From an uncultured Chlorobiaceae bacterium (GTDB taxonomy: Bacteria > Bacteroidota > Ignavibacteria > UBA10030 > SZUA-254), in the NCBI GenBank assembly GCA_964512655.1, contig CAZEJT010000003.1:183719-247718 (forward strand): 64,000 nucleotides of DNA, in the 5' to 3' direction. Shown one piece after another: positions 6,780-26,551 of the stretch (the first letter of the stretch is position 1; every line of letters starts with the position of its first letter). A model generated the notes under the pieces. It was not told the DNA's origin. It saw only the letters and a program-made list of their open reading frames with translations, and did no database searches. A program made the position numbers and the translations under genes.

Positions 6780-6781
6780 TA

Positions 6782-7972: not shown

Positions 7973-8065
7973 AGCTTTGATCTTACTTGCTCATCCGAAC
8001 GCAGCTCAATACGGGCAATCTTGGTTAGAATCAATCCCCGCCATAGAACGGGGGATGAGTGGTAC

Positions 8066-8836: not shown

Positions 8837-9141
8837 TTGTGATTGTTATGAAAAATTGAATGCATCCTGGTTCGAGCTGCCTCGCAAAGCCTTGTCCCAA
8901 AAATCAATCCCGCGGTCATGTTGAGAAAATGGAGAGATAGTTGCTCAGCAACCGATACTTTTCAAGCGCATACTCACCGGTTTCGATGATCCTGAGACCA
9001 TCTTCCTTCCATTCCAGCATCTGACCCTCCTCCCGAAGGTACGACATATTTGTCGTGAAGTCAAGGATAATGCGACAAAATCGTTACCCTCCGATTTGTC
9101 ATATCAATCACATTACTTGAATGAAGGCTCTCCGCTGCACT

Positions 9142-9846: not shown

Positions 9847-9849
9847 GTG

Positions 9850-10833
9850 CTAGCCTCTTCTTCTTGATTTGAGATGATCGCTGCGCCCATCGATGTCTCT
9901 GATGGCTACGCCTACAAAGCCCTCCGCCAACTTAAGACGTGCTGCGGCACGACGCGCTGACAGACCAAGCTTCACCATGACGATCGCGGTCTTGACGTGT
10001 CCGCCGGCCTGGCGCAGTTTCGTTGAAGCATCTTTATATCCGATCCCTGTCGTCATCATCAGGACGCGTTTCGCCCGCTCTTCAAGCTTCCGGCTGTTCA
10101 GCTTCAGGTCCACCATCATATTGCCGAGCACCTTTCCCAATCGTACCATCGACGCGGTGGTGATCATGTTCAGCACAAGTTTCTGGGCAGTCCCGGCTTT
10201 CATCCTCGTCGAACCCATTACCACTTCAGGACCTACCACGGGGCATATGGCGACATCGACACTCTTTTGTAGTGCAGCGAACTCCGGCCTTCCAAGCGCT
10301 GATCTTGAATTTGTTGTCACGAGCAAAGTAGCGGCTCCGCGGCGCTTGGCTTCTCGAAGCGCGCCAATTACATACGGTGTCCTCATGCTGGCAGCGATTC
10401 CACAGACAACATCTTTCTTGCCTGCCTTCATCCGGATGATATCCGACTTTCCGCTCGCCTCAAGGTCTTCAGATCCCTCTATTGCTCTGAAAACAGCGCT
10501 TTTCCCTCCCGCAATGAGACCCTGGACCATCTTTGGATCGGTGCCATAGGTTGGCGGGCATTCTGCGGCATCCAGGATCCCGAGTCGCCCGCTTGTTCCC
10601 GCTCCTACGTAAATTAGCCGGCCGCCTGACTTGAATGAGCGCACAACAACCTCGACTGCTCTTGCGATATCCGGGAGCTCACGCTTCACGGCAGCTGGCA
10701 CCATTGCATCTTCTCGAGCGATCGACTGGAGGATCCCCCGGATGTCTCTGCTGTCGAGATCACGCGTCCTCGGATTGGACTTCTCAGTTATCAGGGTTTG
10801 AAGCTGGTTGAAAAGGCGTTTGTCGTTATTCAT
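9850..10833 (-). CDS. murQ: N-acetylmuramic acid 6-phosphate etherase
   Basis: SIS-domain protein. GRLIYVGAGTSGRLGILDAAECPPTYG and TGSTRMKAGTAQKLVLNM are closely colinear with E. coli MurQ. Confidence 0.9.
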   Translation of the reverse strand: MNNDKRLFNQLQTLITEKSNPRTRDLDSRDIRGILQSIAREDAMVPAAVKRELPDIARAVEVVVRSFKSGGRLIYVGAGTSGRLGILDAAECPPTYGTDPKMVQGLIAGGKSAVFRAIEGSEDLEASGKSDIIRMKAGKKDVVCGIAASMRTPYVIGALREAKRRGAATLLVTTNSRSALGRPEFAALQKSVDVAICPVVGPEVVMGSTRMKAGTAQKLVLNMITTASMVRLGKVLGNMMVDLKLNSRKLEERAKRVLMMTTGIGYKDASTKLRQAGGHVKTAIVMVKLGLSARRAAARLKLAEGFVGVAIRDIDGRSDHLKSRRRG

Positions 10834-10842
10834 TCCTGGCCT

Positions 10843-11553
10843 TCATGGTCGGACTATGACTATCTTCTTATCAACGAGACCCATCGGATCTATCCCATCG
10901 ATCACAAGAGGGTACAAATCGATCCGCCGGGGCTTGAGCTTTATCCTGGCCTGGTCCACTTCCTGAGTGAGATCTCCACCCTTTAAAAGGATAATCGCTC
11001 CCCGATCAAGGGACCTGCCCCGGTGTGAGCCTTCGGAACCCTCTCCGGCCGAGGAGCTCTTGAGTAGGGGGGTGCCCCATTTCACGATCTCGGAGATGCT
11101 TCCCACCCCGCGTGCGATTACGTAGTCGTACGAATTACGGTATGGAGCCGATTTGTTCAGCTCCTCTATCCGGCCACAGACCGCCTTTACTCCCTTCAGC
11201 TTTAACGTGGCTATTATCTCGGTAACCGCCCGGATCTTCTTCTGAATCGAATCGATCAGAGTGACGTTCAAACGGTCTGCGAGGATTCCGAGGGGAATGC
11301 CGGGAAGACCACCCCCGGTCCCGATGTCAACTATCGAACTCTCTGGCAAAAGATCGTACTTGAATAACAGAGCTGCCGAGGCCAGGACATGCCGCTCCCA
11401 GATACCTTCCTCGTCACGACGAGAGATCAGATTTATTTTCTTGTTCCAATCAAGAAGTGACTCAACATATTGGTGTAGCAAATTCGCCTGATCATCGGAG
11501 ACCGAAAACCCGTTCTTCTTACAAATTGTCCTGAACTCCGTGAGTGTTTCCAT
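10843..11553 (-). CDS. rsmG: 16S rRNA (guanine527-N7)-methyltransferase RsmG (GidB)
   Basis: SAM-binding motif VDIGTGGGLPGIPL and conserved gene order next to mnmG. Confidence 0.9.
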   Translation of the reverse strand: METLTEFRTICKKNGFSVSDDQANLLHQYVESLLDWNKKINLISRRDEEGIWERHVLASAALLFKYDLLPESSIVDIGTGGGLPGIPLGILADRLNVTLIDSIQKKIRAVTEIIATLKLKGVKAVCGRIEELNKSAPYRNSYDYVIARGVGSISEIVKWGTPLLKSSSAGEGSEGSHRGRSLDRGAIILLKGGDLTQEVDQARIKLKPRRIDLYPLVIDGIDPMGLVDKKIVIVRP

Positions 11554-11612
11554 AACATCTTGTTTTTACAGGATTTATGGAAGCATATTCCACGTGAAAC
11601 AGGGCGGACTAC

Positions 11613-13499
11613 TCACCGCTTCAATTGCACCATGAGGACTGATAGATCCGCTGGCGTTACGCCGCTGACGCGAGAAGCCTGCCCGACCGTAGAAGGTTTG
11701 AACTTCGTGAGCTTCTCCCTCCCCTCTGTTGATAATGATGTGATAGATGCGAAGTCGTATTCATCAGGTATCGTCATAGACTCAACTTTTTCGAAGTTCC
11801 TGATCTGGTCGTTTTGCTGTTTGATATATCCCTCGTACTTGGTCTCTATCTCCAATTGCTCAATTACCTCGTTTTTCAGCCTCCCGTCTGAAAGGTTCAA
11901 CAATTTATCGACATATCCACATGCGCGTGACTCTATGGTCTTCAGCAGGTCCTTGAGATCCACCTCCGGTCTTCGCGCTACCTGGCCTAGCCTTTCCTTT
12001 TGGGTAATTGTGGAGCTCTGGCGGCTCTCCAAGTACGGATTGATTTCGGCGGGTAGACACCCCTCATTCTCAAGGTAATCAATCCCCTCCTTGACGAGGG
12101 CCTCCTTAAGCTGCAGGCGATCATGGGCTGATTGGGAAACCAGGCCGAGTTCGAACCCCTTCCTGGTAAGGCGTCTATCTGCATTGTCTTGCCTAAGGAG
12201 CAACCTGTATTCGGCTCTCGAGGTGAACATCCTGTATGGTTCTTCGGTACTCTTGCTTACAAGATCATCTATCATCACGCCGATATATGCCTCCGAACGC
12301 CTCAAAATGAACGGATTTTGCCCCTTTGCCTCCCTGGCGGCATTGATTCCAGCCATCAGCCCTTGCCCCCCTGCCTCTTCGTATCCGGATGTCCCGCAAA
12401 TTTGACCCGCAAAAAAGAGGCCATCGATCAGTTTGGTCTCCATTGTGGGCTTGATCTGATGAGGCGGGAAATAGTCGTACTCGACGGCATAGCCCGGCCG
12501 AAGCATGCGAACGTCTTCAAGCCCTGGAATTGTCTTTAGGCCCTCGTATTGTACTTCAGAAGGTAGACTGGTGGAGAAGCCGTTAACGTATACAGTCTTG
12601 GTGTTGTAGCCTTCTGGCTCCAGGAAGATCTGATGGCTACCCTTGTCCGCAAATCGAACAATCTTATCCTCGATCGAAGGACAATACCTTGGACCTATCC
12701 CCTTTATCCTGCCCGTGAACATGGGGGATCGGTCGAACCCCTTCCTCAGCGCCTGATGGGTGCGCCCATTAGTATGGGTAAGGTACATAGGTATCAATGG
12801 GTTCGAAATTCGCTCATTTTGGAAGGAAAATGGCTGAGGCGGGTCATCGCTGTGTTGCTCTTCGAGCTCGTCAAGCCTGATGCTGTCCAGGTCAATTCTT
12901 GGCGGAGTGCCTGTCTTGAGCCGCCCACTCAGAAACCCTAGAGCAACAAGGTTCTCTGTAACACCACTTGAGGGGGCCTCTCCCGCCCGCCCGCCGGCAA
13001 CCTGATCTAGGCCTGTATGCATCAAGCCCCGCAGGAAGGTCCCGGCACAGAGTATTAAGCATCTACAGCTAATAGTATGCCCCCGGCCGGTAGTTAAGCC
13101 TTTGAGCAGCCTCTTCCCGGGGACTCCGTTCTGGGAAGTGAGAACCGCTGCGAGAGAATCCTCAAGGATTTCAAGGTTTTCCTGTGATTCGAGCCTTTTC
13201 CTGGCCTCCAAGGAGTACAATTCTCGATCGTTTTGGCATCTTGGGGACCATACTGCGGGGCCTTTGGACTTGTTTAGCATCTTGAATTGGATCCCGGTAG
13301 CATCGGCTATTTTCCCCATTTCCCCGCCGAGAGCGTCGATCTCACGCACCAAATGGCCCTTGGCAGTGCCTCCTATCGCAGGGTTGCATGACATGCGCCC
13401 GATGGATTTCCTATCCATTGTCAATAGCGCCGTGCTGCACCCCATCCGGGCCGAAGCAAGCGCGGCTTCAATACCCGCGTGCCCGCCACCGACGACCAC
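11613..13499 (-). CDS. mnmG: tRNA uridine-5-carboxymethylaminomethyl modification enzyme MnmG (GidA)
   Basis: FAD-binding VVGGGHAG. Upstream in frame the peptide reads …LKSYYDIVVVGGGHAG with no ATG, so the true start may be a few codons upstream (GTG at 13499, or CTG). Confidence 0.93.
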   Translation of the reverse strand: MVVGGGHAGIEAALASARMGCSTALLTMDRKSIGRMSCNPAIGGTAKGHLVREIDALGGEMGKIADATGIQFKMLNKSKGPAVWSPRCQNDRELYSLEARKRLESQENLEILEDSLAAVLTSQNGVPGKRLLKGLTTGRGHTISCRCLILCAGTFLRGLMHTGLDQVAGGRAGEAPSSGVTENLVALGFLSGRLKTGTPPRIDLDSIRLDELEEQHSDDPPQPFSFQNERISNPLIPMYLTHTNGRTHQALRKGFDRSPMFTGRIKGIGPRYCPSIEDKIVRFADKGSHQIFLEPEGYNTKTVYVNGFSTSLPSEVQYEGLKTIPGLEDVRMLRPGYAVEYDYFPPHQIKPTMETKLIDGLFFAGQICGTSGYEEAGGQGLMAGINAAREAKGQNPFILRRSEAYIGVMIDDLVSKSTEEPYRMFTSRAEYRLLLRQDNADRRLTRKGFELGLVSQSAHDRLQLKEALVKEGIDYLENEGCLPAEINPYLESRQSSTITQKERLGQVARRPEVDLKDLLKTIESRACGYVDKLLNLSDGRLKNEVIEQLEIETKYEGYIKQQNDQIRNFEKVESMTIPDEYDFASITSLSTEGREKLTKFKPSTVGQASRVSGVTPADLSVLMVQLKR

Positions 13500-13561
13500 T
13501 ATGTCATAATAGGATTTCAGGCCAGTGCCCTCTAATACATTTGTTCCACGTGAAACAACAC

Positions 13562-14956
13562 CTACTTCCCGATACAGAACTTGGCAAAGATAGCGTTTAG
13601 AATCTCGTCCGAGGCCACTGTCCCTATGATCTCACCAAGGCTATCCAGAGCAAGCCTGACCCCAACGGCTACCAGTTCGTTACTCTTCCCCTGGCAAAGG
13701 TCCTGCTTCGCCTTGGAAAGATGTTCAGAGGCCTTCGAGAAACTGTCTTTCTGGCGCTCGTTCGTGACAATTAGGCTCTTCTCGGGGCTCGAACCATTGC
13801 CGTGTAAGGCGGTCGAATACAAGAGTTCTCTGAATTCCTCAAGCCCCTCCAACGTTCTTGCTGAGAGATATGTTACCGGAAGTCCTAGACGGCACTTTGG
13901 AAGCTCAAGTCGCCATCCTGGCTTCAGATCGGTTTTGTTAACCGCGAGGACAATGCGCCGGCTGTCGGTCCCTTCCTCCTTCAACTTGCTGAGTATGGAC
14001 CACTCGCCCTCTGAGACGCTTCCTGCCTCAACGACGAAAGCGACGATGTCCGCCTGACTTAACTCCTTCTGAGTTCGCAGGATACCTTCTCTCTCAACCA
14101 GGTCATCGCTCTCCCTGAGGCCCGCTGTGTCAGTGAGGGTACATAGAAGTCCACCGATGTTGAAAGTTTCGTGGATAACATCTCGTGTGGTCCCGGGAAT
14201 CTCTGTGACAATCGCTCGATCTTCGGATAGTAACGCATTGAGAATACTTGATTTGCCAACGTTCGGCCGGCCGATCAGAACAACTCTTACACCTTCTCGA
14301 TAGAGCTTTCCGTACTTGTAGGAATCGACTAAGGAGGAGATCTCCCCAAGAATAGCTATTAAACTATTGTTTATAATAGCTTTATCTGCAATTTCAATCC
14401 CCTCCTCCGCAAAGTCGAGTTCAAGTTCGAGAAGGCCGCAGAGATGAATGAGTCTTTCACGGAGTTCACCGACTTTGGAAGACAGCCGACCCTGAAGTTG
14501 CATCATCGAAACACGCAAAGAATCTTCTGATCGCGCTTTAATTAGATCTGCAACTGCTTCCGCTTGTGAAAGATCGATTCTGCCGTTGAGAAAGGCTCTC
14601 TTGGTGAATTCCCCGGGCTCGGCGGACCGGGCACCGCTCTGGAGGAGGGACGCGAGGATTTTGCCGGTCAAGTACATCCCCCCGTGACAGCTGATTTCTA
14701 CCGTATCTTCTCCGGTATAGGATCCCGGCGCCCTGAAGACGGTTGCAACAACCTCGTCGATTACTTCTCCGGCGATGTCCGTGAAATCGCCGAAGTGGAC
14801 CGTGTGCGTAGGAGCCAATGACAGGGTTCCCCCCTTGCGGAATCTACTGTCGCAGAGCTCGATGGCCCCCTTCCCGCTGACGCGAAGGACAGAAATACCC
14901 CCCTCCCCAATGGGGGTAGCGATGGCGGCAATAATATCGTCCTGGGGAGTCATCAC
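13562..14956 (-). CDS. mnmE: tRNA modification GTPase MnmE (TrmE)
   Basis: N-terminal IAAIATPIGEGGISVLRVSG, G-domain GRPNVGKSSILN, and the conserved C-terminal FCIGK. Confidence 0.95.
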   Translation of the reverse strand: MMTPQDDIIAAIATPIGEGGISVLRVSGKGAIELCDSRFRKGGTLSLAPTHTVHFGDFTDIAGEVIDEVVATVFRAPGSYTGEDTVEISCHGGMYLTGKILASLLQSGARSAEPGEFTKRAFLNGRIDLSQAEAVADLIKARSEDSLRVSMMQLQGRLSSKVGELRERLIHLCGLLELELDFAEEGIEIADKAIINNSLIAILGEISSLVDSYKYGKLYREGVRVVLIGRPNVGKSSILNALLSEDRAIVTEIPGTTRDVIHETFNIGGLLCTLTDTAGLRESDDLVEREGILRTQKELSQADIVAFVVEAGSVSEGEWSILSKLKEEGTDSRRIVLAVNKTDLKPGWRLELPKCRLGLPVTYLSARTLEGLEEFRELLYSTALHGNGSSPEKSLIVTNERQKDSFSKASEHLSKAKQDLCQGKSNELVAVGVRLALDSLGEIIGTVASDEILNAIFAKFCIGK

Positions 14957-15160
14957 TGAATTGGATAGGGAGACTGGCCTCTGAATTTAGGAAACTAGGC
15001 CAAAAGAAACAACGAGCTGTCCATGAACTTTCCTTCGGTTGTGCATGAGCCGGGAGTTGGGTAGATTTAGTGAAGAGGTATCTGACTGCCAGGGGGCGGC
15101 CGGGGGCCGGCGATCGTTTTGGATCACCGCACGGAACTACCTCCAGGGCTCAGAGAATTC

Positions 15161-15670
15161 ATGCGCGTGTTGGCGAGCATATCGGTGTGCTTTTTCTTGT
15201 TGGGATGCAGCGAGGAAGAAACATTCGTCCAATACCCCAGACCCAACATCGAGCTCAACGGCAGCGCCTCGCCTGTAACAGGAAGTGCGCTGACCCCGGT
15301 CACGGTTAGGGTGAGCGTCGTAAACAGTGGGAACCTTCGCAGGATATGCTATTCCGGTTGCGGTTATCTGACCCCCGGAATTACCTATCACCTTTATGAT
15401 CCCTACTTCAGGGAGGTCTATCTCTCCAATCCGCTGACCCGGCCCTATTGCGCGGACTTTGTTGAGCATTTCTATCCGAGCAAGACATTCGAGGGCACCT
15501 TCATAATCGACGGAACAATCTTTACCGCACAGGGAGATTCATCGGCTATGAAGCCTGGCACGTACTCCGTCATCATTGAGTTCACTTCCTGGGCCGAGGA
15601 AAACCCTTCCGGGGCAAGCGTCCTCGTAGAACAGAAGCTGCTCACGGTGGGTTGGAAATCGACGAAATGA
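15161..15670 (+). CDS. Paralogous lipoprotein family member 1 (possible BsuPI-like beta-sandwich; candidate protease-associated protein)
   Basis: ATG at the MRVL… signal with lipobox FLLGC. Conserved blocks RICYSGCGYL, YDPYF, PGTYSVIIEFTSWAEENPS and KLLTVGWK are shared with two paralogs. A conserved 45-bp leader lies upstream. Confidence 0.7.
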   Translation: MRVLASISVCFFLLGCSEEETFVQYPRPNIELNGSASPVTGSALTPVTVRVSVVNSGNLRRICYSGCGYLTPGITYHLYDPYFREVYLSNPLTRPYCADFVEHFYPSKTFEGTFIIDGTIFTAQGDSSAMKPGTYSVIIEFTSWAEENPSGASVLVEQKLLTVGWKSTK

Positions 15671-15761
15671 TCTGGGCTAAGGAGTGGAATACTCCGAGGA
15701 GGTAGCAATGGCAGCAACAACAGTATCGAGTGGAGTCATCGCAAGATTGAGCGTAGGTATC

Positions 15762-16271
15762 ATGCGGGTGGCGATGAGCATATCATTGTGCTTCTTGTTG
15801 TTGGGGTGCAATCAGGACGTGTTAACCGTTCCACCCGATACACTCGGCATCGAGCTCACTGTCACTCGTTCACCCACAGTGGGCAGCGTCACCAGCCCGG
15901 TGACCATCACGGCGCGCGTGAACAACCGGGGTGTATCGACGCGGATTTGTTTTTCAGGTTGCGACTATCTGATCACCGGGATAGCCTTTCGTATCTATGA
16001 TCCCTACTTCCAAGAGGTTTTTCTCTACAACCCGACGACGTGGCCGCATTGTGCAAACTATCGTGTGTCGTTCCATCCGGGTGAGAAAATCCAGGGTGCG
16101 TTCACATTCGACGGAACGCTCTATGATGTCCGTGGAGATACGCTTACGATGGGCGGGGGTACTTACACCGTCCTCATCGAATTCACTTCCTGGGCGGAGG
16201 AGAATCCATCCGATACAAATCGGCTCGACGTTGAGAAGCTGATTACATTTGACTGGAAAACGGGGGGATAA
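15762..16271 (+). CDS. Paralogous lipoprotein family member 2 (tandem copy)
   Basis: MRVAMSISLCFLLLGC lipobox, with RICFSGCDYLITG, YDPYFQEVFLYNP, GGTYTVLIEFTSWAEENPS and KLITFDWKTGG. About 70% identical to copy 3 and about 45% to copy 1. Confidence 0.75.
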   Translation: MRVAMSISLCFLLLGCNQDVLTVPPDTLGIELTVTRSPTVGSVTSPVTITARVNNRGVSTRICFSGCDYLITGIAFRIYDPYFQEVFLYNPTTWPHCANYRVSFHPGEKIQGAFTFDGTLYDVRGDTLTMGGGTYTVLIEFTSWAEENPSDTNRLDVEKLITFDWKTGG

Positions 16272-16314
16272 TCCGGGGACACCTTCAATTGGCTTCATTC
16301 CCTCGAATGAAAAA

Positions 16315-16341
16315 GTCCCAACCGGCGCGTCCGGTTGGGAC
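16315..16341. terminator. Bidirectional hairpin terminator between lipoprotein copy 2 and the convergent ECF sigma gene
   Basis: 11-bp perfect stem gtcccaaccgg / ccggttgggac with a cgcgt loop, and AAAAA on the + side (a T-run for the minus-strand gene). The same element recurs after copy 3. Confidence 0.6.
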
Positions 16342-16351
16342 TTACTACAAT

Positions 16352-17233
16352 TTACTGGAGGACGGCCAGATCGATTCTGTTAAGCCGGGTGGGGTCAGCA
16401 ACAACCTCGAGTTTGACTACCTTTCCGTTTGCGATCGTGAATTCAAGAACAACCTGCAAATCACCTCTCGGGGCGACGATAATTCCCACGGCGCCATTCA
16501 CTAGTCCAATTTGACCAAACCGGGCGCGCCCGGAGAAAGCGACAGCTACCTTCGCCACGCTTTCCGCGCCACGGATCTCCGTTGCCAACCCGGAGGGTGA
16601 TGCGCTGGCATCGGCCCTCAGTTCGACATCGGGATCAAGAACCGCTATCAAGCCCGCAACATTTCCTTCACGTGCAGCTTCAAGAAAGGCATTCACCGCT
16701 TTTTGTTGGTCTTCAATTTCACCCGACGATGTCTTGGGAGTACCCTGGACGCGGCGTCGCGCACGACTGGCAAGCTGGCGCGTTGCAGTCGTTGAACGTT
16801 GCACGATAGGCGCGATGGCATCGAAAGGGTACTCAAAAACATCATGCAGCACGAATGCGACACGCTCTGCGGGCGTCAGAGTCTTCAGGACGACGAGCAG
16901 GGCAAGACCTACCGACTCCGCCAATGCCGATTCAGCCTCAGGATTCATCGACGTGTATGAAGGCATGGTCCTATCGAACTCGTGAAACTCGAGCGATTCT
17001 TCCCGGCGTGATTTCCGAGCACGGAGCATGTCCAGGCAGATGCGCGCGGTGACGGTTGTCAGCCATCCCTCCAGGTTCTCGACTCTGTTTATGTCGGCAT
17101 TTCTCAACCGTATCCACGCCTCCTGAACGGCATCCTCCGCTTCGGGTAACGAGCCAAGAATCCGGTACGCGATTGCCCGCAGACGGGGCCTCTGGCTCTC
17201 AAATCTCTCGACCAACGACTCTTCTCTCTTCAT
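16352..17233 (-). CDS. ECF-type RNA polymerase sigma factor with C-terminal extension (ECF41/SigJ-like)
   Basis: Region 2 AVQEAWIRL and region 4 TARICLDMLRARK are present. About 290 aa, with a ~100-aa C-terminal (SnoaL-like) extension typical of ECF41-type sigma factors. Confidence 0.8.
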   Translation of the reverse strand: MKREESLVERFESQRPRLRAIAYRILGSLPEAEDAVQEAWIRLRNADINRVENLEGWLTTVTARICLDMLRARKSRREESLEFHEFDRTMPSYTSMNPEAESALAESVGLALLVVLKTLTPAERVAFVLHDVFEYPFDAIAPIVQRSTTATRQLASRARRRVQGTPKTSSGEIEDQQKAVNAFLEAAREGNVAGLIAVLDPDVELRADASASPSGLATEIRGAESVAKVAVAFSGRARFGQIGLVNGAVGIIVAPRGDLQVVLEFTIANGKVVKLEVVADPTRLNRIDLAVLQ

Positions 17234-17303
17234 CCGTCACATTTTCTCGTCCTGCCGCGTCATTCAGTTATGGTACAATAATGACGAATCTAAACCAATT
17301 GAT

Positions 17304-17993
17304 GTGACAAGGAATATGGACACCGCCCGTACTTCACTTATTAATGATCAACGAGACCCGCACAATATTTTGGTGATCGGGGCCAATGGCGGAATCGGAA
17401 GGCAGGTTGTGGAGATGGCCCTGAAGGAGGGTTTCAAGGTGACGGCGCTTCTTCGGACACCATCCAACCTGGGCCTTCGGCACGACAACCTTGAGATAGT
17501 GCAGGGTGACGTCATGCGCCCTGAAACCATCGAACCACATTTTGCCGGGAAGGATGTTGTAATTTCTGCCATCGGAAAGGATTCCCTGAAGCAGACCACT
17601 CTCTATTCCCAAGGCGTAAGGAATGTGATCGCCGCAATGAAGAATGCGCGGACACAGCGGGGCTTCTTCATCTCGGCCTCAGGACTGGAGGTGAATCCCT
17701 CCCACTCATGGGCGGTCCGATCCCTCACCAAATATGTTTTGCAGAATCTGCTGAAGAACATGTACGATGATCTTCGTAGAATGGAAACCCTCATAAAGGT
17801 TAGTGCCGTGAATTGGACAATTGTTCGTCCACCGCGGCTCCTCAACAAGCCGTCTGTGGGAAAATACCGGGTTGCCGTCGACAGATTCTTGCAGCATTGC
17901 CTTACAATTTCGCGAGCCGACGTAGCTCATTACATCATTCACAACTTGAAAAATGAGTTCACGTATCGAACAACTGTTGAAATTGCCTATTAG
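17304..17993 (+). CDS. NAD(P)H-binding SDR/NmrA-like oxidoreductase
   Basis: Rossmann motif ILVIGANGGIGRQVV and about 220 aa. The start is uncertain (GTG at 17304 or ATG at 17316). It is divergent from the ECF sigma gene, a common ECF41 neighbourhood. Confidence 0.7.
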   Translation: MTRNMDTARTSLINDQRDPHNILVIGANGGIGRQVVEMALKEGFKVTALLRTPSNLGLRHDNLEIVQGDVMRPETIEPHFAGKDVVISAIGKDSLKQTTLYSQGVRNVIAAMKNARTQRGFFISASGLEVNPSHSWAVRSLTKYVLQNLLKNMYDDLRRMETLIKVSAVNWTIVRPPRLLNKPSVGKYRVAVDRFLQHCLTISRADVAHYIIHNLKNEFTYRTTVEIAY

Positions 17994-18285
17994 ACCCAGG
18001 CCCCCCATACACGCCGCCACAGGTTCATGACGCGATCTGCCTCCCGAATCGTGATCCAGTTGGGATTCTTGAATATCCCGTCATCCTGAAGCCTGCTCCC
18101 GCTAAACTATATGCCCCAACAAGCGTACACAAGTTGGGACTATCTGTAGTACATATAGTCTAGGCCCTCATACCAGTGCGGGATAAGGAGGGATATCCGG
18201 GAACCTCCTTGCCTGAATCCTTCCCGGTACGGATTTTGCAGTATCGCCCGCGGTTACAATTACTCGATCTGAATTCTGAAGTAGG

Positions 18286-21200
18286 GTGTACAGAATCATG
18301 AGGAGGTTTCTCGAACTTCTTGTCTTGATCATCACACCGACGATCCTTCTCGCCGGTGGATATCCGTCGTCTGGTGATTCCACCCGCCGGGCACTGATGT
18401 CCATGGACAGCGCGAGGAGGGCAGAGGAACAGAGGCTCGGAGCGCTGCAGAAGGTAATCGTTGAGTTCAACGACGAGCCAATGTTCCTGGCCCGTAGGGA
18501 GCCGCATCCTCCTTTCAAGGCGAGATCGTCGGATTCCTACCTGGCACGCTTTTCACAATTCGGCGCCGATGCAGCTGCTATCACAAGGACATTTCGCTCC
18601 GCAACATCGGATCGCGTAGGAATCCGTCATCGGTACTACAAGGCGTTCTTCGGCGTCAGTGCCACGGTCCCCGGCAGGATATTACCGGCGCTCAGGCGCC
18701 TTGCGTACGTTAGGGGAGTCTATCCCGATGGTGAGGTGCACGCGACAATCGAGCCGGCGATCGAACTAATTGGCGCCCCGGCCGTCTGGGGGACACTCGG
18801 GACGCAGGGTGATAGTGTCCGCGTCGGAATCATCGATTCGGGGATCGATTATCTTCACCCGGCACTTGGCGGAGGGTTTGGACCCGGTTTTAAGGTCGCC
18901 GGGGGATACGATTTTGTGAATAATGACAAGGATCCGGCGGATGACAACGGGCATGGGACGCATGTCGCAGGCATTATCGCAGCGGACGCCGACACTGTAA
19001 AGGGGGTCGCTCCCCACTCGATTTTGTACGCTTACAAGGCTCTCAATGCGGCGGGGAGCGGCGCCGTAAGTGATATCATCGCTTCGATCGAACGCACCGT
19101 CGATCCGGATCAGAACGGGGATGACTCCGACAGGCTCGACATTGTGAACATGAGTATCGGGGGCCCCGGTGGGCCCGATGATCCGGGAAGCGTTGCAGTC
19201 GACAATGCGGTGCGGCTCGGGGTCACATTCTGTATCGCTGCGGGAAACACGGGGCACAAGATCCCAGTTCAAGGAAAGGAGAATAATTACTTTTATGATG
19301 GCTCCGAAACCATCAACAGCCCCGGGACGGCGGAGCTTGCAATCACCGTTGGGGCGTCTGACCTTTCGGATAACCTGGCCTTCTTCTCATCCCGTGGGCC
19401 GAACACAACGTCGTTCAGCATCAAGCCGGACGTTCTCGCGCCGGGAGTCGACATCAACTCGACGTATCCGCCTGCCGGGTTCAAGGTCCTGAGCGGCACG
19501 TCCATGGCCACCCCGATGGTTGCCGGAGTCGCTGCATTAATCAAGGGTGTCCACCGCTCCTGGACTCCGGCCATGATCAAGTCCGCGATCGTGAACAAAG
19601 CCAGAAATATCGGCCTCAACGCCTACCTGCAGGGGGGAGGGAGAGTACGGGCGATACAATCAGTATCAGCTAAGACGCTCGTTACCCCTTCCGCGTTGAG
19701 CTACGGATTGGACGACCCCGCAGCAGCCCCATGGTCGTTGCCTGAAACATTGCGCGTCTACAACACTCATTCATCGTCGCAGTCGTATGCAATCGATGTC
19801 GGGGGAATTGCATCCGGCATCTCGCTGAACGTGTCTCCTTCGAGTTTTTCCATCCCCGCACAAGACTCGGCCATGGTGATTGCCACCCTTACGGTGGATA
19901 ATGCGTTTGTGGCCATTGCTGATGAGGATATTCTCCGTTTTACCGGGCGCGTGATATTGAGCGGCACTGCCGATACCGCCGTTGTTCCATGGGCATTCGT
20001 GCGGACCAGCAGGCTGGTCATCACCACGAGCGAGCCGGATCCCTTTTTTATCGGCTACACAAATACCTTCGGCTTTATCAGCAACATGCAGAGGGTGAAC
20101 CGGACCAGTCCGACCCGAGCCGTGGTGTACGCTCCTGTCAAGGGCGCTTACGAGTTTTTCACCGTCTTCCGGAGTCCTGACGTGCCGCCCAGAATCGTCA
20201 TCAACGAAGGGGTTCCTGTCGTCACCGATGCTTCCGAGGTCTTCCTCGATGCGGCTCAAGCCGTCAATCCGCTGATCTTTCAGGGCGTTGATCAAGATGG
20301 TGCTTCTCTGGCGACGTACCGCGCACCACAGCACGCCGTTATTACTTCGCTCCCCAATTTCGGTGACTGGAACACTACGTTTTCCGGAGCCTCCGACACC
20401 GTGCTGATCTCCGGCGCGTCCGCGAGCCATTCCTTCAAACCGGTCGAACTCCAGATCGATCTTATGAAGACCATGACCTTCCACGTCGTGCAGTTCGAGA
20501 GATTCACGGGCATGACCGGCGCCAGGTTGGCGGTCAATTCTCCCGCGGATTTCATTCAAGAGCATTTCAAGGTCAAAGTTCCTCCCGGGACTATGTCGGC
20601 TGCGCAATTCACTACAATCTGGTCATACACCGACTTCGGGGGAATGGGGGGCTTCTCCGGGATTGGTGCCGATCTGGACACTCTCTCGGTGAACGGAGAT
20701 GAATATGCGTTCACAGGATATTTCGGAAAATCTCCCAGCCTCACGGAGGACGTGGCTCTAAAATTCTACTCGAGCTATTCCAATGTTCCGGCCCTTTCTC
20801 TCGACTATGAGTCGCCGTTTATCATGCCATACGGGGACAGTGTCGTGGTCACGGCGAGGGAGTTGGTCGACCCCGCTGTCCCCCGCTTCAAGAGCGGAGG
20901 GACGTTGACGTTCGGAGGGGCGCCGGCCCACCTGCTGATGGTGTGGAACAACAATATTATTGGGACGAACACGCTGTTCTTTCGGCCGATCTTTGAGGGA
21001 ATGCTCCGCGAGATCCGGTATCGTGATATCGTGGCCGGAACGTATAGCGTCTTTGACAAGAACGGCACGGAGCTCTTCACAAAACCCCTCGCTGAGCCGA
21101 GCCCTCCGCTTGAACTTACCGCAGACACCTATAAGGTCGTGGCGACATCGAGCAACTACTGGCTTCGCAGCATCCGGGGAACCCAGACACTCTCATCGGA

Positions 21201-21900
21201 ATTCAATCTCGGCGCCGGATTGGCGGCGAACCCTCAGAGCATTACATCGTTCATGCTTCTCGATTCGAATAATCAAACTACTGACACCTTCGTGAAAAAC
21301 GAGCCGGGGACTCTGCGCTTTTCTGTGAACGTGCTGAGCGATACAAACCATGTTCCACTGGCTGATTCCACCAAATCTTGGTACCGAAAGCACGGAACGG
21401 AACCGTGGATACCCCTTGCCCTGACGGAGATTGCGAAAGTGGCTGAAAGGGAGGGGAGAATCCTACAGGCGGATATCAGGGCGGCGACAGGGGAGGACTC
21501 GGTCGCGATTGATCTGAGGGTGGCGTCGAAGGGTATCAACGGATTTACAGTGGAGCAGATTGTTGCGCCCGCCTTCGCCGTTGGGAAATGGGATACACTT
21601 GTGACGGACGTGAAAACTCCCTCGCCACAGCTCCCGCTGCGATTCGCCCTCGAACAGAATTATCCGAATCCGTTCAATCCTTCAACGGTGATAAACTACG
21701 AAATCCCATCACGCGGCCGCGCGGTGATGAAGGTGTACGATGTGCTCGGCCGTGAAATGGTAACTCTGGTCGACCAGGAACAGGAGGCCGGCAGTCACAC
21801 TGTTTCCTGGAATGCATCCTCGATGCCGAGCGGCGTGTATTTCTATCGGCTTCAGATGCGCTCGAATATCGCTGCAAAGAAGCTGTTGCTACTCAGGTAG
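18286..21900 (+). CDS. Subtilisin-like (S8) serine peptidase, 1204 aa, with T9SS C-terminal sorting domain (paralog of 48..4811)
   Basis: Signal peptide, then a propeptide-like N-region. GIIDSGIDY (Asp), HGTHVAG (His) and [11 protein letters not shown] (Ser). [25 protein letters not shown]…GVYFYRL. Confidence 0.85.
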
Positions 21901-21914
21901 GTTGATGCGGCGTT

Positions 21915-22493
21915 CTATAGAATCTGGTAGACGCGGTATTCTACCTTCCCCGGAATGGACTTATACACCCCCACCGCTATGACCTTGTTGAGCCAGGCGT
22001 ATTTTTCTGCTCCGGCCTCGAACATAGGTACGATGCGGGCGAACAGCTCCCCACCCGGATCTTTGTAGGCGATCCCGCGACAGGTCATTAGAATCTTCTG
22101 GTCATCATCGGTCTGCAAAACAAACCGAATGTCGAGGGAGCTTGTGCCATCGGGACGCACCACCATCCAGTCACCGCTTGGATTTACTACAGTACCCTTT
22201 AGTCGCGGACCCTCAAAAGTTCCACCGGAGACGGCAACAACTACCCGCTTCACACCCGGGGATCCAACGTTATTTGATGGCCCCCTTTCGAACACTAGGT
22301 CCATGAGAAACTGTGAGTGAAGCCGGTCTCCGGCTTGTGTGTCCGCCGGCGATGCAACCTGGTGGAGTTTCGAGCCAGTGAGGGTGTCGCCCGGGGCCGT
22401 GCCGCGGGAGCGATTGCTGCCGAACGATGTTGCCAGCGCGAAAACAACGAGGTAAGCGGTGTTGTTGATTCTCATTAGATAACGCCGAATCAT
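21915..22493 (-). CDS. DUF3237 family secreted protein
   Basis: ATG at 22493 with an AAAGGCAAAGGAACCC RBS region; signal peptide MIRRYLMRINNTAYLVVFALA. Conserved VSGGTFEGPRLKGTV…GDW…RPDG…LDIRF…TDD pattern. The longer tracked ORF (to 22685) reads through the paralog leader and is unlikely to be real. Confidence 0.65.
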   Translation of the reverse strand: MIRRYLMRINNTAYLVVFALATSFGSNRSRGTAPGDTLTGSKLHQVASPADTQAGDRLHSQFLMDLVFERGPSNNVGSPGVKRVVVAVSGGTFEGPRLKGTVVNPSGDWMVVRPDGTSSLDIRFVLQTDDDQKILMTCRGIAYKDPGGELFARIVPMFEAGAEKYAWLNKVIAVGVYKSIPGKVEYRVYQIL

Positions 22494-22635
22494 GGGTTCC
22501 TTTGCCTTTTTGTTGTGCAGATTAACAGATAATACGCGAACTGAGATGTACAACAATGAAACAGCACTAATCGGTTCAGTGGTTGTGCATGAGGCGGGAG
22601 TTGGGTAGATTGAGTGAAGAGGGCTCGGAGAATCT

Positions 22636-23139
22636 ATGCGCGTGTTGACGAGCATAACGGTGTGCTTTTTCTTGTTGGGATGCAATCATGACGTGCTAGT
22701 CGTTCCATCCCAGCTACTTGGCATCGAGGTCGCTGTCACACCCTCACCTTCGGTTGGCAGCCTCACCAGCCCGGTGACCGTGACGGCGAGCGTGAAAAAC
22801 CGCGGTATTTTCACGCGGCTCTGTTATTCAGGTTGCGACTATCTGATCACCGGGATAGACTTTCGTATCTACGATCCATACTTCCAGGAGGTTTTTCTCT
22901 ATGATCCGAGGACGCGGCCGCTTTGTGCAGACTTTACTGTTTTGTTCCATCCGGGTGAGAACATCCAGGGTGCGTTCACGATCGACGGGACACTCTACGA
23001 TGCTCGTGGCGATACGGTAAAGATGGGCCGGGGTACGTACAGCATCCTCATCGAATTCACTTCCTGGGCGGAGGATCATTCCGAGGTAAGTCGGCTCGTA
23101 GTCGAGAAGCTGATTACGTTTGACTGGAAGACGGGGTGA
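22636..23139 (+). CDS. Paralogous lipoprotein family member 3 (distal copy)
   Basis: MRVLTSITVCFFLLGC lipobox, with RLCYSGCDYLITG, YDPYFQEVFLYDP, GTYSILIEFTSWAEDH and KLITFDWKTG. Same leader and terminator as copies 1 and 2. Confidence 0.75.
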   Translation: MRVLTSITVCFFLLGCNHDVLVVPSQLLGIEVAVTPSPSVGSLTSPVTVTASVKNRGIFTRLCYSGCDYLITGIDFRIYDPYFQEVFLYDPRTRPLCADFTVLFHPGENIQGAFTIDGTLYDARGDTVKMGRGTYSILIEFTSWAEDHSEVSRLVVEKLITFDWKTG

Positions 23140-23196
23140 TAATCCGGAACAACTCGGAGACACCTTCAACTGGCCTTCATTCCCTCTAATGAAAAA

Positions 23197-23231
23197 GTCC
23201 CACCTGGCGCGGCCGGTTGGGACTTTCTGCG
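23197..23231 (+). terminator. Rho-independent terminator after lipoprotein copy 3
   Basis: gtcccacctggcgcggccggttgggac stem-loop followed by TTTCTGCG. Paralogous to the 16315-16341 hairpin. Confidence 0.55.
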
Positions 23232-23367
23232 AATGAGACCTGATAGACCCGATTATGGCCTTTCCCCTGCATCAATTGAAACTCTCCGACCCGTAATTCA
23301 TTTGACTTTCTCCAAAAGGTTGTGTAGGGTAATGTAATTGGTGTCCATTACCCACTCGAGGTGGCTT

Positions 23368-24702
23368 ATGAGGACACGCATTTTCCTTCCGATCGTTTAC
23401 CTTCTCTGGCTTCACTCGACTGCCCAAACCCAAGCCTGGGTTCCGATCAAAAGCAGCTTCATGGGACCGGACACGGCTGTCCCCCCGGCCATCTGGACGT
23501 TAACAGGCTTTGACGGCAACCTCATTGTGGCCGGTTCTTTCGGTAGTGTCGCGGGTGTTGAAGCGCACTCCATTGCGCGCTGGGACGGGACCGAATGGCA
23601 CTCGCTCGCAGGTGGCCTCACCGCGTCGAATGCCCCGAATAACGAAATTCGTGCGGTCTTGGGCCTTGGAACTGATTTGTACGCCGGAGGAGAGTTCGAC
23701 TCGATCGGAGGAATCCGGGCGAAGAATGTTGCCCGCTGGGATGGTTTTGAATGGCATGCTGTTGACGAGACGATAAAGGCCTTCCCCGTACACGCGATGT
23801 TTGTGTACCAGGGTGAGTTGTACGTCAGCGGTGTGTTTGACATGGCAGTCGCGAAGCTCGTGAACGGATCGTGGGTGCGGGTGGGATCAGATACCGATTA
23901 TGCCGGCGGATCTTCGATGACCGTGTTCCAGAATGATTTATATGTCGGAGGTTTCGAGCGGGTGATGAAGTGGAACGGGTCGAGTTGGTCTGTCCTTGGG
24001 CTGAATCCGTGGCCGGAGCACATATATGCCGCCCTTGCCACCTTTGGAAATTCTCTCTACGCCAGCGTTTACTCTCCGTATAACACAAACCTCATTGCCC
24101 GGTTCAAGGACGGTGTTTGGGAGGAGATTCTTACGCCACGACTTCACAAGTCCTATGGAGCATTTAGCAACTTCGGAAGTACCTTGATCGCCGGCGGCAC
24201 ACACGAGGCGTTCGACACCTCCGATGGGGTTGTGCCGGCTAATGGTTTGGCCGTATGGGATGGATCGAGTTGGCATTCGGGGCCAGGCGGTGTTCAAGCA
24301 ATCGTGTCGGGTTTTACAATTATCGACAGCACGCTTTATGCTGCCGGGTCGTTTCAGTTCGAAGGCGACAGTGCGACCTATGGGGTCGCGAGGTTATTAC
24401 TCCCCAACGATGTTACCGGCGGCCAGCCGCACGTTCCCCGCGAATTTGCGCTGGGTCAGAACTATCCTAACCCCTTCAATCCGTCGACAACATTCACGTT
24501 TAGTCTTCCATCGAAAGCGTTCGTCTCGCTGAAAGTGTTTGATGAATTGGGGAGAGAGGTATCAACAGTTTTTGCCCAAGAGATGCCTCCGGGGGTGTAT
24601 TCAAGGCATTGGAATGCCGATGGTTTATCCAGTGGCACATACTTTTATCGGCTTCGCGCCGGCTCAATCAGCGAAACCAGGAAGCTCATTGTGGTACGAT
24701 AA
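23368..24702 (+). CDS. Kelch-like beta-propeller repeat protein with T9SS C-terminal sorting domain
   Basis: Signal peptide MRTRIFLPIVYLLWLHSTAQ. About six repeats of the form ARWDGTEWHSLAGG, ARWDGFEWHAV, MKWNGSSWSVLG and AVWDGSSWHSGPGG at roughly 50-aa spacing. [25 protein letters not shown]…GTYFYRL. Confidence 0.75.
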   Translation: MRTRIFLPIVYLLWLHSTAQTQAWVPIKSSFMGPDTAVPPAIWTLTGFDGNLIVAGSFGSVAGVEAHSIARWDGTEWHSLAGGLTASNAPNNEIRAVLGLGTDLYAGGEFDSIGGIRAKNVARWDGFEWHAVDETIKAFPVHAMFVYQGELYVSGVFDMAVAKLVNGSWVRVGSDTDYAGGSSMTVFQNDLYVGGFERVMKWNGSSWSVLGLNPWPEHIYAALATFGNSLYASVYSPYNTNLIARFKDGVWEEILTPRLHKSYGAFSNFGSTLIAGGTHEAFDTSDGVVPANGLAVWDGSSWHSGPGGVQAIVSGFTIIDSTLYAAGSFQFEGDSATYGVARLLLPNDVTGGQPHVPREFALGQNYPNPFNPSTTFTFSLPSKAFVSLKVFDELGREVSTVFAQEMPPGVYSRHWNADGLSSGTYFYRLRAGSISETRKLIVVR

Positions 24703-24766
24703 GATCAAAGCCCCAACCATCGTATAAGGGTTGGGGCTTCGGTTGAAAACCTGCCGGGAGCTAGCT

Positions 24767-26551
24767 CTACCGTGGACGCTGTGGGAGGTTTTTCGCAATC
24801 CTGGAAATCAGACCCCCGCTTCTTTTCTTCTCCTCCACCTTCCTCAGCGGCTCGTCTTTGTGCTGCTTGTTCACGTAGACCTGCTGGGCTATGGAGAAGA
24901 GATTGAACATGAAGTAGTATAGGTTGAGGCCCGAGGGGAACCCATTGAACATCATCGTCAGAAGTACCGGCATCATCCACACCATCATCTTCTGACGCGG
25001 ATCTTTCACGCTCATCTTCTGCTGAACAAACATAGTCACGCCCATCAGGAGTGCGAGCCCGCTGACCTCGCTGATATTGAAGAAAGGGATCTTGAACGGG
25101 AGGGTCGCGACAACATCGGGGGTGGAAAGATCCTGAATCCACCACACGAAAGAAGCCTGCCGCAATTCGATCGTAGCGCTGAATACCGCCCATAGTGCAT
25201 ACAGGATCGGCAGTTGCAAGAGCATGGGGAGACAGCCGCCGGCGGGGTTCACGCCATACTCCTTATAGAGCCGCATCATTGCCTGGTTCATCTTCTGCGG
25301 ATCATCTTTGTGCTTCTCCCGGATCTCGGTCATCATCGGCTGAAGAGCCTGCATCTTCCTCATCGAGGTCATGCTGCTCTTCGTCAGGGGGTAGAGCACG
25401 ACCTTTATGAGGATAGAGAAGATGATGAGAACGACTCCGAAGTTCGAAATGAACAGCCGCAGGAAGTTGAACGTCGGGATAATGACATAGCGGGAGATCG
25501 GTCTGATGATCCAGGCGGCCCCGAGGCTCATAATCCTATCGAGCTCGACATCATACTTCTTCACAATGTCGAAGTCGAGGGGCCCCAGATAAACCGTGAA
25601 CCTGTCGGTCTCTACGGGGTTACCGACGAAGGGCATCTTAAGAGCGAGACTGTAGTTCTCCTTCGCGCCATTATCCGGCAGATGCACCCTATTGCCTTCG
25701 ATGTAGGCTCCCTGGCTCGCCTTCTCGCGGGGAATGATTGCGAGCGCGAAGTACTTGTTTCTCGCGGCCACCCAGGTCACACGGCCGGACACGTTCTGCT
25801 TTATGGGCTCATTGAAGTTATTTGCGTCAACGTCTGTGAGCTCCCCGCCTGCAAATGCCGAGGCCTTGGCGAAATTCGATTCGTTAACGGTGTTCCGTTC
25901 CTGATACCTGAGTCCTGACTCCCAGGAGACCTGGTATTCGAAATTGGAGATAATATTCTCCATGTTCTCGAACCGATACACCGCGTCGAACGAATAGAGC
26001 CCGCCATAAAAGACGAGCGATTTGACTATGCGGCTCTTCTGGTCCACGGAGAGAACCAGATCTATCCTGACCGAATCGTTCTCGCCGAGAGTAACGTCCT
26101 GCCCCCCCTGAAATTCCGGCTTGAACACGAGATTCTTCGTGTTGACGAGCTTCCCATCGGAGGTAAAAAACGTGAGGTTGAAATCGCGCGTATTGGGGCC
26201 GTCGACGAGATTTACAGGGTACTTATCCCATGTCTTAAACTGCTTTAACTCCCACGATTGGATGGCGCCGCCCCGGGTGGATATCTCCGCCCGGTAGTAC
26301 TTGGTTTCGATCCGGATGGTCTTTGCTTCCCCTGTGGCAAGTGGTGAGAAGAACTTGCCGAGAGTATCGCCTCCCGCGCGTTCATTGCCGGGAATCGGCT
26401 GGCGGTTGATCGTGGTGTCGGGCTTCGGTACGTGGACTGCGGTAGATTCTGCACCCACCGGAGCCTTGGTGGGCGGCGGGGCATTCATATACATCCAGAC
26501 CATCAGGATGATGCCGATAAGGACGAACCCTATTATTGTATTTCGGTCCAT
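24767..26551 (-). CDS. yidC: Membrane protein insertase YidC
   Basis: N-terminal TM, a large periplasmic domain, and a C-terminal five-TM core with conserved regions. Conserved position next to yidD/rnpA. Confidence 0.92.
   Translation of the reverse strand: MDRNTIIGFVLIGIILMVWMYMNAPPPTKAPVGAESTAVHVPKPDTTINRQPIPGNERAGGDTLGKFFSPLATGEAKTIRIETKYYRAEISTRGGAIQSWELKQFKTWDKYPVNLVDGPNTRDFNLTFFTSDGKLVNTKNLVFKPEFQGGQDVTLGENDSVRIDLVLSVDQKSRIVKSLVFYGGLYSFDAVYRFENMENIISNFEYQVSWESGLRYQERNTVNESNFAKASAFAGGELTDVDANNFNEPIKQNVSGRVTWVAARNKYFALAIIPREKASQGAYIEGNRVHLPDNGAKENYSLALKMPFVGNPVETDRFTVYLGPLDFDIVKKYDVELDRIMSLGAAWIIRPISRYVIIPTFNFLRLFISNFGVVLIIFSILIKVVLYPLTKSSMTSMRKMQALQPMMTEIREKHKDDPQKMNQAMMRLYKEYGVNPAGGCLPMLLQLPILYALWAVFSATIELRQASFVWWIQDLSTPDVVATLPFKIPFFNISEVSGLALLMGVTMFVQQKMSVKDPRQKMMVWMMPVLLTMMFNGFPSGLNLYYFMFNLFSIAQQVYVNKQHKDEPLRKVEEKKRSGGLISRIAKNLPQRPR

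Follow-up and report, generated by a model that had tools for sequence, protein, structure and literature searches.

The described systems closest to the locus reported here are the expansion of lipoprotein paralogs with gene conversion and the pairing of ECF41 sigma factors with COE partner genes, the latter having the consensus TGTCACA-N16-CGTC (with a spacer tolerance of ±1 nt) and no known targets other than the sigma operon and its COE gene (PMC3426412). We analyzed a window of 64,000 nucleotides from an uncultured Chlorobiaceae bacterium (contig CAZEJT010000003.1, positions 183,719–247,718 of the forward strand), in which three copies of a small lipoprotein gene, termed c1, c2 and c3, lie between mnmE and yidC, with c2 and c3 on either side of a block of genes that includes an ECF41-type sigma factor. 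All coordinates below are those of the window. As in lipoprotein paralog expansion with gene conversion, the three copies are monophyletic, are under purifying selection and have non-coding flanks in common, both 5′ and 3′; a recombination breakpoint is found in one copy, and the tandem junction holds what appears to be a duplication scar. The locus differs in having three copies only and no sign of switching or phase variation; it lacks silent cassettes as well as invertible and slippage elements. We consider it probable that the arrangement arose when one small lipoprotein gene of the yidC–mnmE interval was triplicated in this lineage, and that no mobile or recombination device is involved.

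The modules were delimited by open reading frames, alignment and self-alignment of the window. The genes c1 (15161–15670) and c2 (15762–16271), both on the + strand, each encode 169 residues; c1 begins with the signal peptide MRVLASISVCFFLLGC, and c2 has no leader of its own. The third gene, c3 (22636–23139, + strand), encodes 167 residues and is a mosaic, c1-like over approximately 22636–22684 and c2-like over 22685–23139. The c1 leader (15037–15078, + strand) consists of TTGTGC (15039–15044) and TAGATT (15062–15067) separated by 17 nt, followed by GTGAAGAG, while the c3 leader (22581–22635, + strand) has the same two hexamers at the same spacing (22583–22588 and 22606–22611) and a short 5′ untranslated region (UTR) with GGAG. 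The leader repeat, 15037–15085 against 22581–22629, shows 90% identity and is found at just these two sites in 64 kb (chance expectation 0); over its whole length the c3 leader is identical to that of c1 at 50 of 55 positions. A similar relationship links the 3′ ends of c2 and c3. The c2 3′ flank (16272–16346), which includes a 13-bp hairpin (16312–16343), matches the c3 3′ flank (23140–23228, hairpin at 23195–23225) at 71 of 78 positions, with 91% identity between 16293–16346 and 23175–23228, and the window holds two copies of this hairpin flank in total, after c2 and after c3 (chance expectation 0). Homology between the modules stops immediately past the c3 hairpin, and none is found upstream of the leaders. 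From the end of the c2 module to the start of the c3 module is a distance of 6234 bp (16347–22580). Alignment of the two leaders further reveals a GC-rich indel of 68 nt (15079–15146, + strand) in the c1 5′ UTR, which separates the leader core from the ribosome-binding region, is missing from c3 and is unique in the window.

An earlier, sequence-only reading of this stretch had described the three paralogs, the c1/c3 leader and the c2/c3 hairpin, and all are present at the positions it claimed, far above chance. Its extra insert of ~70 bp in the c1 leader corresponds to the 68-nt indel, and its 6.3-kb block of ECF-sigma, oxidoreductase, subtilase and DUF3237 genes to the 6234-bp interval, with contents identified by Pfam. 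Finer points of that description needed adjustment: the leader had been started at 15040 and 22585, where the homology actually begins at 15037 and 22581, and the leader copies differ by C/G at 15051 and T/G at 15068, so that one of the two positions given as t/g varies and the other does not. What it missed were the c3 mosaic and a relic of mnmE, the informative features of the locus.

The three-copy arrangement is genuine and is not an assembly artefact, because unitigs match the window exactly and break only in words shared by c2 and c3. Logan unitigs from the independent runs SRR12313480-81 match exactly over 5310–15982 and 16172–22856, and their breaks are confined to words of 31–32 nt common to the two genes. 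One exact unitig joins the DUF3237 gene, the c3 leader and the first 221 nt of c3.

We compared the three copies to their relatives. The nearest outside homolog (P0100, 43–45% identical) is on the Logan contig L001. In a neighbor-joining tree of the mature region, with the L001 ortholog and other family members included, the copies form a clade (c1,(c2,c3)) with 100% bootstrap support. All three copies therefore arose within this lineage from a single resident gene. Synonymous divergence (dS) of c1 to c2 and c3 is ~1.2, with a ratio of non-synonymous to synonymous divergence (dN/dS) of ~0.32–0.35, whereas c2 and c3 are closer to each other, with a dS of 0.32 and a proportion of synonymous differences (pS) of 0.26. 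Purifying selection acts on all three copies (dN/dS 0.32–0.47).

The gap between c1 and c2 contains a fragment of the 5′ end of mnmE. This pseudo-fragment (15698–15749, − strand) is identical at 37 of 52 positions to 14912–14963, at the start of the intact gene, and its reverse complement reads MTPLDTVVAAIATS where mnmE itself reads MTPQDDIIAAIATP. The local alignment score of 22 compares with 8.2 ± 1.3 in shuffles and was reached by 0 of 2000. From its sequence and position, we read the relic as the scar of the old tandem duplication that produced c1 and c2. Duplication of a segment reaching from inside mnmE to just past the lipoprotein stop codon would leave such a relic between c1 and c2, and a tandem duplication of that extent would leave a terminator solely after the second copy. 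The relic ends 12 nt before the c2 start codon and the corresponding distance for c1 is 198 nt, indicating that the downstream copy would have lost ~185 nt, the leader included.

The third copy has a composite structure. The c3 leader together with the first 49 coding nucleotides is identical to c1 at 97 of 104 positions (93%), and the coding part before the breakpoint at 47 of 49. After the breakpoint c3 is identical to c2 at 379 of 455 positions (83%) and to c1 at 282 of 455 (62%). The informative sites of c3 run AAABAAAAAA and are then mostly B, and the maximum chi-square breakpoint falls at 22680/22685 (permutation p = 0.0002). Across the 16 codons of the signal peptide, c1 and c3 show synonymous changes at 0 of 10.3 sites (dS 0), compared to a pS of ~0.6 and a dS of ~1.2 between them in the mature part, and the same codons of c1 and c3 are 63–67% identical to L001 and 76–80% identical to c2. 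No reciprocal mosaic is present in c2. Since the signal peptide is without synonymous change while the mature part and L001 diverge, selection alone appears less likely than recent homogenization of the c1/c3 5′ tract, whether through gene conversion or because c3 formed as a c1/c2 chimera.

The motifs that flank the genes suggest how they may be transcribed. The TTGTGC-N17-TAGATT arrangement in both leaders fits a sigma70-type skeleton, TTGnnn-N16-18-TAnnnT, which is ~5-fold enriched in intergenic DNA (15 of 45 matches in 7% of the window, against 3.2 expected) and also precedes mnmE and the DUF3237, subtilase and type IX secretion system (T9SS) genes. A promoter of the Bacteroidetes type (TAnnTTTG) was considered and rejected, as it shows no enrichment in the intergenic DNA of the window. 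The Bacteroidetes −7 motif is thus not enriched here, though the organism uses T9SS and groups with metagenome-assembled genomes (MAGs) of the Ignavibacteriota/Bacteroidota. Pattern scans and folding of the c1–c2 gap gave no promoter skeleton, no terminator and no significant structure, and c2 is probably co-transcribed with c1. The hairpins fold better than shuffles on the + strand, with z = −4.4 after c2 and z = −3.4 after c3, where one mismatch and one G-U wobble still allow folding. On the − strand the c2 hairpin (z = −5.0) scores as an intrinsic terminator, with 13 pairs, a loop of 5 and a T5 tail, at a distance of 8 nt downstream of the sigma factor stop codon. This hairpin probably terminates transcription in both directions, serving the convergent sigma gene as well as c2, for which it would be weak at best. 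The simplest reading of these patterns is of two units, promoter–c1–c2–terminator and promoter–c3–terminator, which would account for a leader before c1 and c3 and a hairpin after c2 and c3. The leader had previously been put forward as a shared regulatory site; this is probably right insofar as it would be the promoter and 5′ UTR of the genes themselves, and not as a target of ECF41 (below).

The 68-nt segment of c1 has no significant RNA structure (z = −0.18) and no significant similarity to the L001 UTR, and we rejected homology of the insert to the L001 5′ UTR on that ground. A known RNA element or riboswitch was likewise rejected for the leader and the insert, which gave no Rfam match at E ≤ 1 and folded as shuffles do. 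The one Rfam match is an irrelevant long non-coding RNA inside the c3 coding sequence.

We propose the following history. The ancestral unit would have consisted of a promoter, the gene and a terminator. A tandem duplication that took in the first 45 nt of mnmE would have given rise to c1 and to the ancestor of c2 and c3, and the downstream copy would then have lost the ~185 nt that held its promoter, leaving c1 and c2 as a bicistronic unit that ends at the original terminator. A c2-type gene would have been copied again to yield c3, beyond the 6.2-kb set of accessory genes, and the c3 leader and signal peptide may have become near-identical to those of c1 via gene conversion or formation of a c1/c2 chimera. 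Each of these processes, tandem and dispersed duplication, promoter loss, gene conversion and the growth of an accessory islet in the conserved rnpA–yidC–mnmE–mnmG cluster, belongs to ordinary genome evolution. The locus is a worked example of how a single sequence, through a duplication scar and a mosaic breakpoint, can reveal how a repeat pair came about.

Several observations weigh against this proposal. Both flanks are ~9% diverged, less than the synonymous sites of c2 and c3 (pS 0.26), and this low divergence requires either that the flanks are constrained or that further conversion took place. We found no trace of a larger duplication. The promoter, the transcription start and the operon structure are all pattern-based: a stricter sigma70 scan passed over the leader, whose −35 hexamer matches at 3 of 6 positions, and the recurrence of the leader block GGTAGATnnnGTGAAG upstream of the L001 ortholog is marginal (shuffle p ~0.03–0.08). 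The T-tails of the hairpins on the + strand are poor (TTACTAC and TTTCTGC), and the c2 hairpin is better suited to terminating the sigma gene.

Comparison of the yidC–mnmE interval with that of relatives shows how much of the locus is particular to this lineage. The left border is mnmE (13562–14953, − strand), encoding the tRNA modification GTPase (Pfam TrmE_N, MnmE_helical and MMR_HSR1); it shares 64% identity with its L001 ortholog, and its ATG at 14953 fits the 463-residue call in the Logan contig L012. The right border is yidC (24767–26551, − strand), 78% identical to L001 yidC. The interval between them (14954–24766) is 9.8 kb in the window. L001 is syntenic with the window, in the order rnpA–yidC ... 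mnmE–mnmG–rsmG–SIS–DUF2461–DUF5131, and its interval of 1.1 kb holds a single family member along with a further small lipoprotein gene. In three metagenome relatives (L093, L111 and L097, with yidC 55–80% identical) yidC is followed directly by mnmE, with no lipoprotein gene, and in a fourth (L096, yidC 61% identical) the gap is ~430 nt with no family member. Among 80 species-representative genomes, none has a family member at a distance of up to 10 kb from mnmE; the nearest of those 80 are Ignavibacteriota/Bacteroidota MAGs, with mnmE 55% identical. The 9.8-kb interval is a lineage-specific islet, because relatives hold 1.1 kb, ~430 nt or direct yidC–mnmE adjacency in its place. Within the rnpA–yidC–mnmE–mnmG–rsmG cluster, the yidC–mnmE junction, usually closed up tightly in this clade, appears to be a local hotspot at which accessory genes are gained. 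Every inserted gene of the islet codes for a protein that is exported or related to the envelope, or for a regulator of such proteins. The second lipoprotein of L001 (8168–8515 of that contig), located between mnmE and the family member, is a different protein of 115 residues (MKAIGLLLLALLAASC...) and has no counterpart in the window.

The sigma factor enclosed by c2 and c3 (16352–17233, − strand) is of the ECF41 type, SigJ-like, with a fused C-terminal SnoaL-like domain, as assigned by Pfam and NCBIfam. The protein of 293 residues matches Sigma70_r2 (3.8e-13) and Sigma70_r4_2 (9e-08), with a weak match to SnoaL_2 at residues 180–249; against the SigJ model NF007214 it gave E = 1.6e-72 over residues 5–288, at 244 bits, below the curated cut-off of 271. 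Its COE partner (17316–17993, + strand) is an NAD(P)H-binding, NmrA/epimerase-like oxidoreductase (NAD_binding_10, E = 1.7e-42), for which the gene call of 225 residues is identical in Logan contigs. Pfam detects no anti-sigma domain in the interval, and the neighbors of the sigma gene are the oxidoreductase gene and c2.

The two genes are divergent, and the spacer of 70 bp between them contains back-to-back ECF41 promoter signatures (17235–17309), CGTCACA-N16-CGTC on the + strand (17235–17261), facing the oxidoreductase gene, and a perfect TGTCACA-N16-CGTC on the − strand (17309–17283), facing the sigma gene. The core GTCACA-N16-CGTC has exactly two matches in 64 kb, against 0.2 expected, and both are in this spacer. 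The locus thus shares with described ECF41/COE pairs (Wecke et al. 2012, PMC3426412) the sigma2 and sigma4 regions followed by a SnoaL-like tail, the lack of an anti-sigma partner, the epimerase/oxidoreductase neighbor and, here, a signature upstream of both genes. It differs in the divergent arrangement with two back-to-back motifs, in its Ignavibacteriota/Bacteroidota-like host, and in being cargo of a bracketed interval that is unrelated to the leader. Judged by these motifs, the ECF41 sigma factor would regulate itself and the oxidoreductase gene, and not the lipoprotein genes. The locus adds a textbook ECF41 case with back-to-back promoters. To our knowledge, ECF41 has not been studied in the phylum of this genome.

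Logan contigs from three samples (L009, L010 and L011) all end at window position 17299, within the ECF41 promoter spacer, and contigs of other samples read through it. The cause may be strain polymorphism or a repeated word elsewhere; a further look-up at 17299 gave no alternative junction.

The other genes of the islet encode a large protease and two further proteins. The S8 subtilase (18298–21900, + strand; ~1200 residues) has an I9 propeptide and a C-terminal T9SS sorting domain (Peptidase_S8, 2.4e-56; Por_Secre_tail). The DUF3237 gene (21915–22493, − strand; Pfam E = 3.4e-27) is divergent from c3 and has its own promoter-like TTGTTG-N16-TATTAT at 22556–22529. Beyond c3, the last gene of the islet (23338–24702, + strand) encodes a T9SS-sorted, β-propeller-like protein (Pfam Por_Secre_tail), and it is missing from the yidC–mnmE interval of relatives. 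Orthologs of the subtilase with 64–68% identity occur in three unrelated neighborhoods, one of them rich in insertion sequences (IS), and none of these neighborhoods contains ECF41, DUF3237 or a member of the lipoprotein family. The differing neighborhoods indicate that the large T9SS subtilase gene relocates often. The ortholog on L113 (1–12400; JGI Ga0131077_10007167), 66% identical, lies amid IS21, IS4-like, IS66 and Y2 transposase genes, and those on L112 and L115 have wholly different neighbors.

We rejected three accounts of the block as a unit. A conserved cassette is at odds with S8 orthologs in three unrelated contexts. Foreign composition is not distinctive, with GC of 0.52–0.59 in the block and 0.50–0.55 in the flanks. 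A mobile element or miniature inverted-repeat transposable element with the repeats as its ends was set aside on finding no transposase or integrase Pfam domains in 13.5–26.5 kb. Other signs of mobility were also missing: there is no tRNA nearby, no further copy of the leader, hairpin or 68-nt segment in the window and no homology past the module ends.

Two rival explanations concern the shared leader. It has been suggested that the leader could be a target of the enclosed ECF sigma factor, which would place the lipoprotein genes in the ECF41 regulon. Physical proximity is all that speaks for this. When the motif comparison was run, no match to the ECF41 promoter was found in 15037–15160 or 22581–22635; the leader has TGTGCAT, with mismatches to TGTCACA at 4 of 7 positions, and no CGTC 16 nt downstream, the only two ECF41 motifs in 64 kb are those of the sigma/oxidoreductase spacer, and the L001 ortholog keeps a GGTAGAT...GTGAAG block with no ECF41 gene nearby. 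We regard an ECF41 target as extremely improbable. In a different rival, no gene conversion took place, and strong purifying selection, acting on an RNA or regulatory element, simply kept the c1/c3 leader and signal-peptide codons nearly identical. The better conservation of both flanks relative to synonymous sites would fit this, as would the presence of a short leader block in L001. However, selection of this kind does not readily explain why 16 signal-peptide codons show no synonymous change between c1 and c3 when the same codons have diverged in L001 and c2, nor why the whole leader is identical at 50 of 55 positions when L001 retains ~13 of 16 nt in one block, and a retained RNA element is not borne out by folding or by Rfam. 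Selection alone is an unlikely explanation, if the least unlikely of the rivals weighed here.

The remaining rivals treat the repeats as agents of rearrangement. Same-orientation repeats can in principle mediate deletion or amplification, as the sequence-only reading pointed out, and c2 and c3 do bracket the block exactly; the mosaic c3 implies that family members have recombined at least once, and the islet varies between related genomes. On this evidence the repeats, mainly c2/c3, might actively delete, circularize or amplify the 6.2-kb ECF41/subtilase block. The copies themselves argue otherwise, being 83% identical with longest identical runs of 32 and 31 nt, near the RecA-dependent minimum, and their dS of 0.32 implies long coexistence without homogenization. 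In a set of 15 billion proteins, those of c1, c2 and c3 each form a singleton cluster, which leaves no full-length hybrid gene on record, and unitigs from several samples give the window arrangement only, a single set of junctions. Structural variation among relatives does exist in that the whole 9.8-kb islet, and not the bracketed block, is what varies; at the genus-level distance of these relatives, it does not demonstrate recombination between the repeats as the cause. Active recombination at the repeats is thus quite unlikely, and the locus cautions against over-reading same-orientation repeats as recombination devices. We give about the same small credence to a Campbell-type integration, in which circular DNA carrying the block and a homologous gene would have entered by crossover, making c2 and c3 reciprocally chimeric products. 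Such an event would fit the exact coincidence of the block's edges with the module ends, past which there is no homology, along with at least one chimeric flanking copy and cargo that moves, as the S8 orthologs in unrelated and in one case IS-rich contexts suggest. It would also require a donor of the same lineage, given that the nearest outside homolog falls outside the c1/c2/c3 clade; in the chimeric c3 it is c1, and no foreign allele, that the 5′ part matches, c2 lacks the reciprocal mosaic, the interval has no integrase, transposase or compositional anomaly, and no S8 ortholog is linked to a family member or to other block genes. A large tandem duplication from leader to block followed by deletion was rejected, with no block remnant downstream of c3 and no homology beyond the modules. 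Local triplication of a resident gene, with homogenization of the c1/c3 5′ tract, remains the reading that we prefer.

We investigated the lipoproteins themselves. All three, of 167–169 residues, have a signal peptide of the pattern MRV...FFLLGC, and the lipobox L-L-G-C at residues 13–16, with the cysteine at residue 16, fits the pattern [LVI][ASTVI][GAS]C. Word-index protein searches returned almost only self-matches, and the family was defined by an exhaustive HMMER profile search of 1.84 billion representative proteins, which recovered 96 relatives (clusters at 50% identity), most of them 160–170 residues long with the same lipobox. The family hidden Markov model matches c1 at 1.6e-52. The lipobox cysteine is kept in at least 90% of 36 family members, and N55, C67, C97, G118, G133, Y135 and W164 are invariant in the family. 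A protein search found no family members in species-representative genomes. The c1, c2 and c3 proteins have no match to Pfam at E ≤ 0.01 and likewise none in NCBIfam or among Protein Data Bank (PDB) sequences, and none of the 36 members reaches Pfam significance, the best being CARDB at E = 0.08 in 1 of 36. Thus, the locus documents an unannotated family of Ig-like lipoproteins of ~165 residues with ~96 clusters at 50% identity.

The N-terminal strands of the family carry a 'VT.T..V.N.G' motif reminiscent of DUF11/CARDB Ig-like surface repeats, and partial profile matches to long or giant proteins land on such repeats. The family differs from these in being a stand-alone lipoprotein of ~165 residues with conserved residues of its own. 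From an alignment of 7 sequences, AlphaFold2 models c3 as an all-β sandwich with a pLDDT of 83 and a pTM of 0.75. Foldseek ranks the Fn3-like domain of glycoside hydrolase family 3 (GH3) enzymes at the top by E-value, and by query-normalized TM-score 3ISY, Ipi of Bacillus subtilis, is best among the matches listed. The predicted fold is that of an E-set/Ig-like β-sandwich, which gives little on function.

The resemblance to Ipi raises the question of a link to the subtilase. The predicted c3 model has the same fold as Ipi, the reference structure of the BsuPI family (PDB 3ISY, PF12690). By sequence, neither c1–c3 (E ≤ 0.01) nor the 36 members (E ≤ 0.1) match PF12690 in Pfam, and a profile search of PDB sequences did not recover 3ISY even at E ≤ 10. 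Ipi is cytoplasmic, whereas the present proteins are exported lipoproteins with a conserved Cys pair, and Foldseek E-values place the GH3 Fn3-like domains above it. The status of Ipi as an inhibitor is itself disputed (PMC3901451). It is conceivable, and very doubtful, that the lipoproteins are Ipi/BsuPI-like binders of the enclosed T9SS subtilase, either periplasmic or anchored in the outer membrane and serving in self-protection or as a maturation chaperone. If so, the islet would be a self-contained unit of protease and inhibitor with inhibitor genes amplified and homogenized, and the family would represent a new group of exported subtilase inhibitors in T9SS bacteria. The relatives' loci and S8 ortholog loci that we examined give no gene-neighborhood support for this role: neither the L001 relative nor P0042 has a neighboring subtilase, and the S8 orthologs have no neighboring family member.

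Finally, two observations concern the annotated and fused forms of the family. The public protein for c2 (P0002, 187 residues) begins at an ATG inside the mnmE relic (window 15708–15761), and its annotated N-terminal extension of 18 residues is probably wrong, because all homologs begin at the MR... codon, which is at 15762. In the relatives P0030 (312 residues) and P0055 (448 residues), which come from other organisms, neither with a Pfam match, the lipoprotein domain is present two or three times per polypeptide, and tandem duplication of this domain thus recurs both as separate genes and as fusions.

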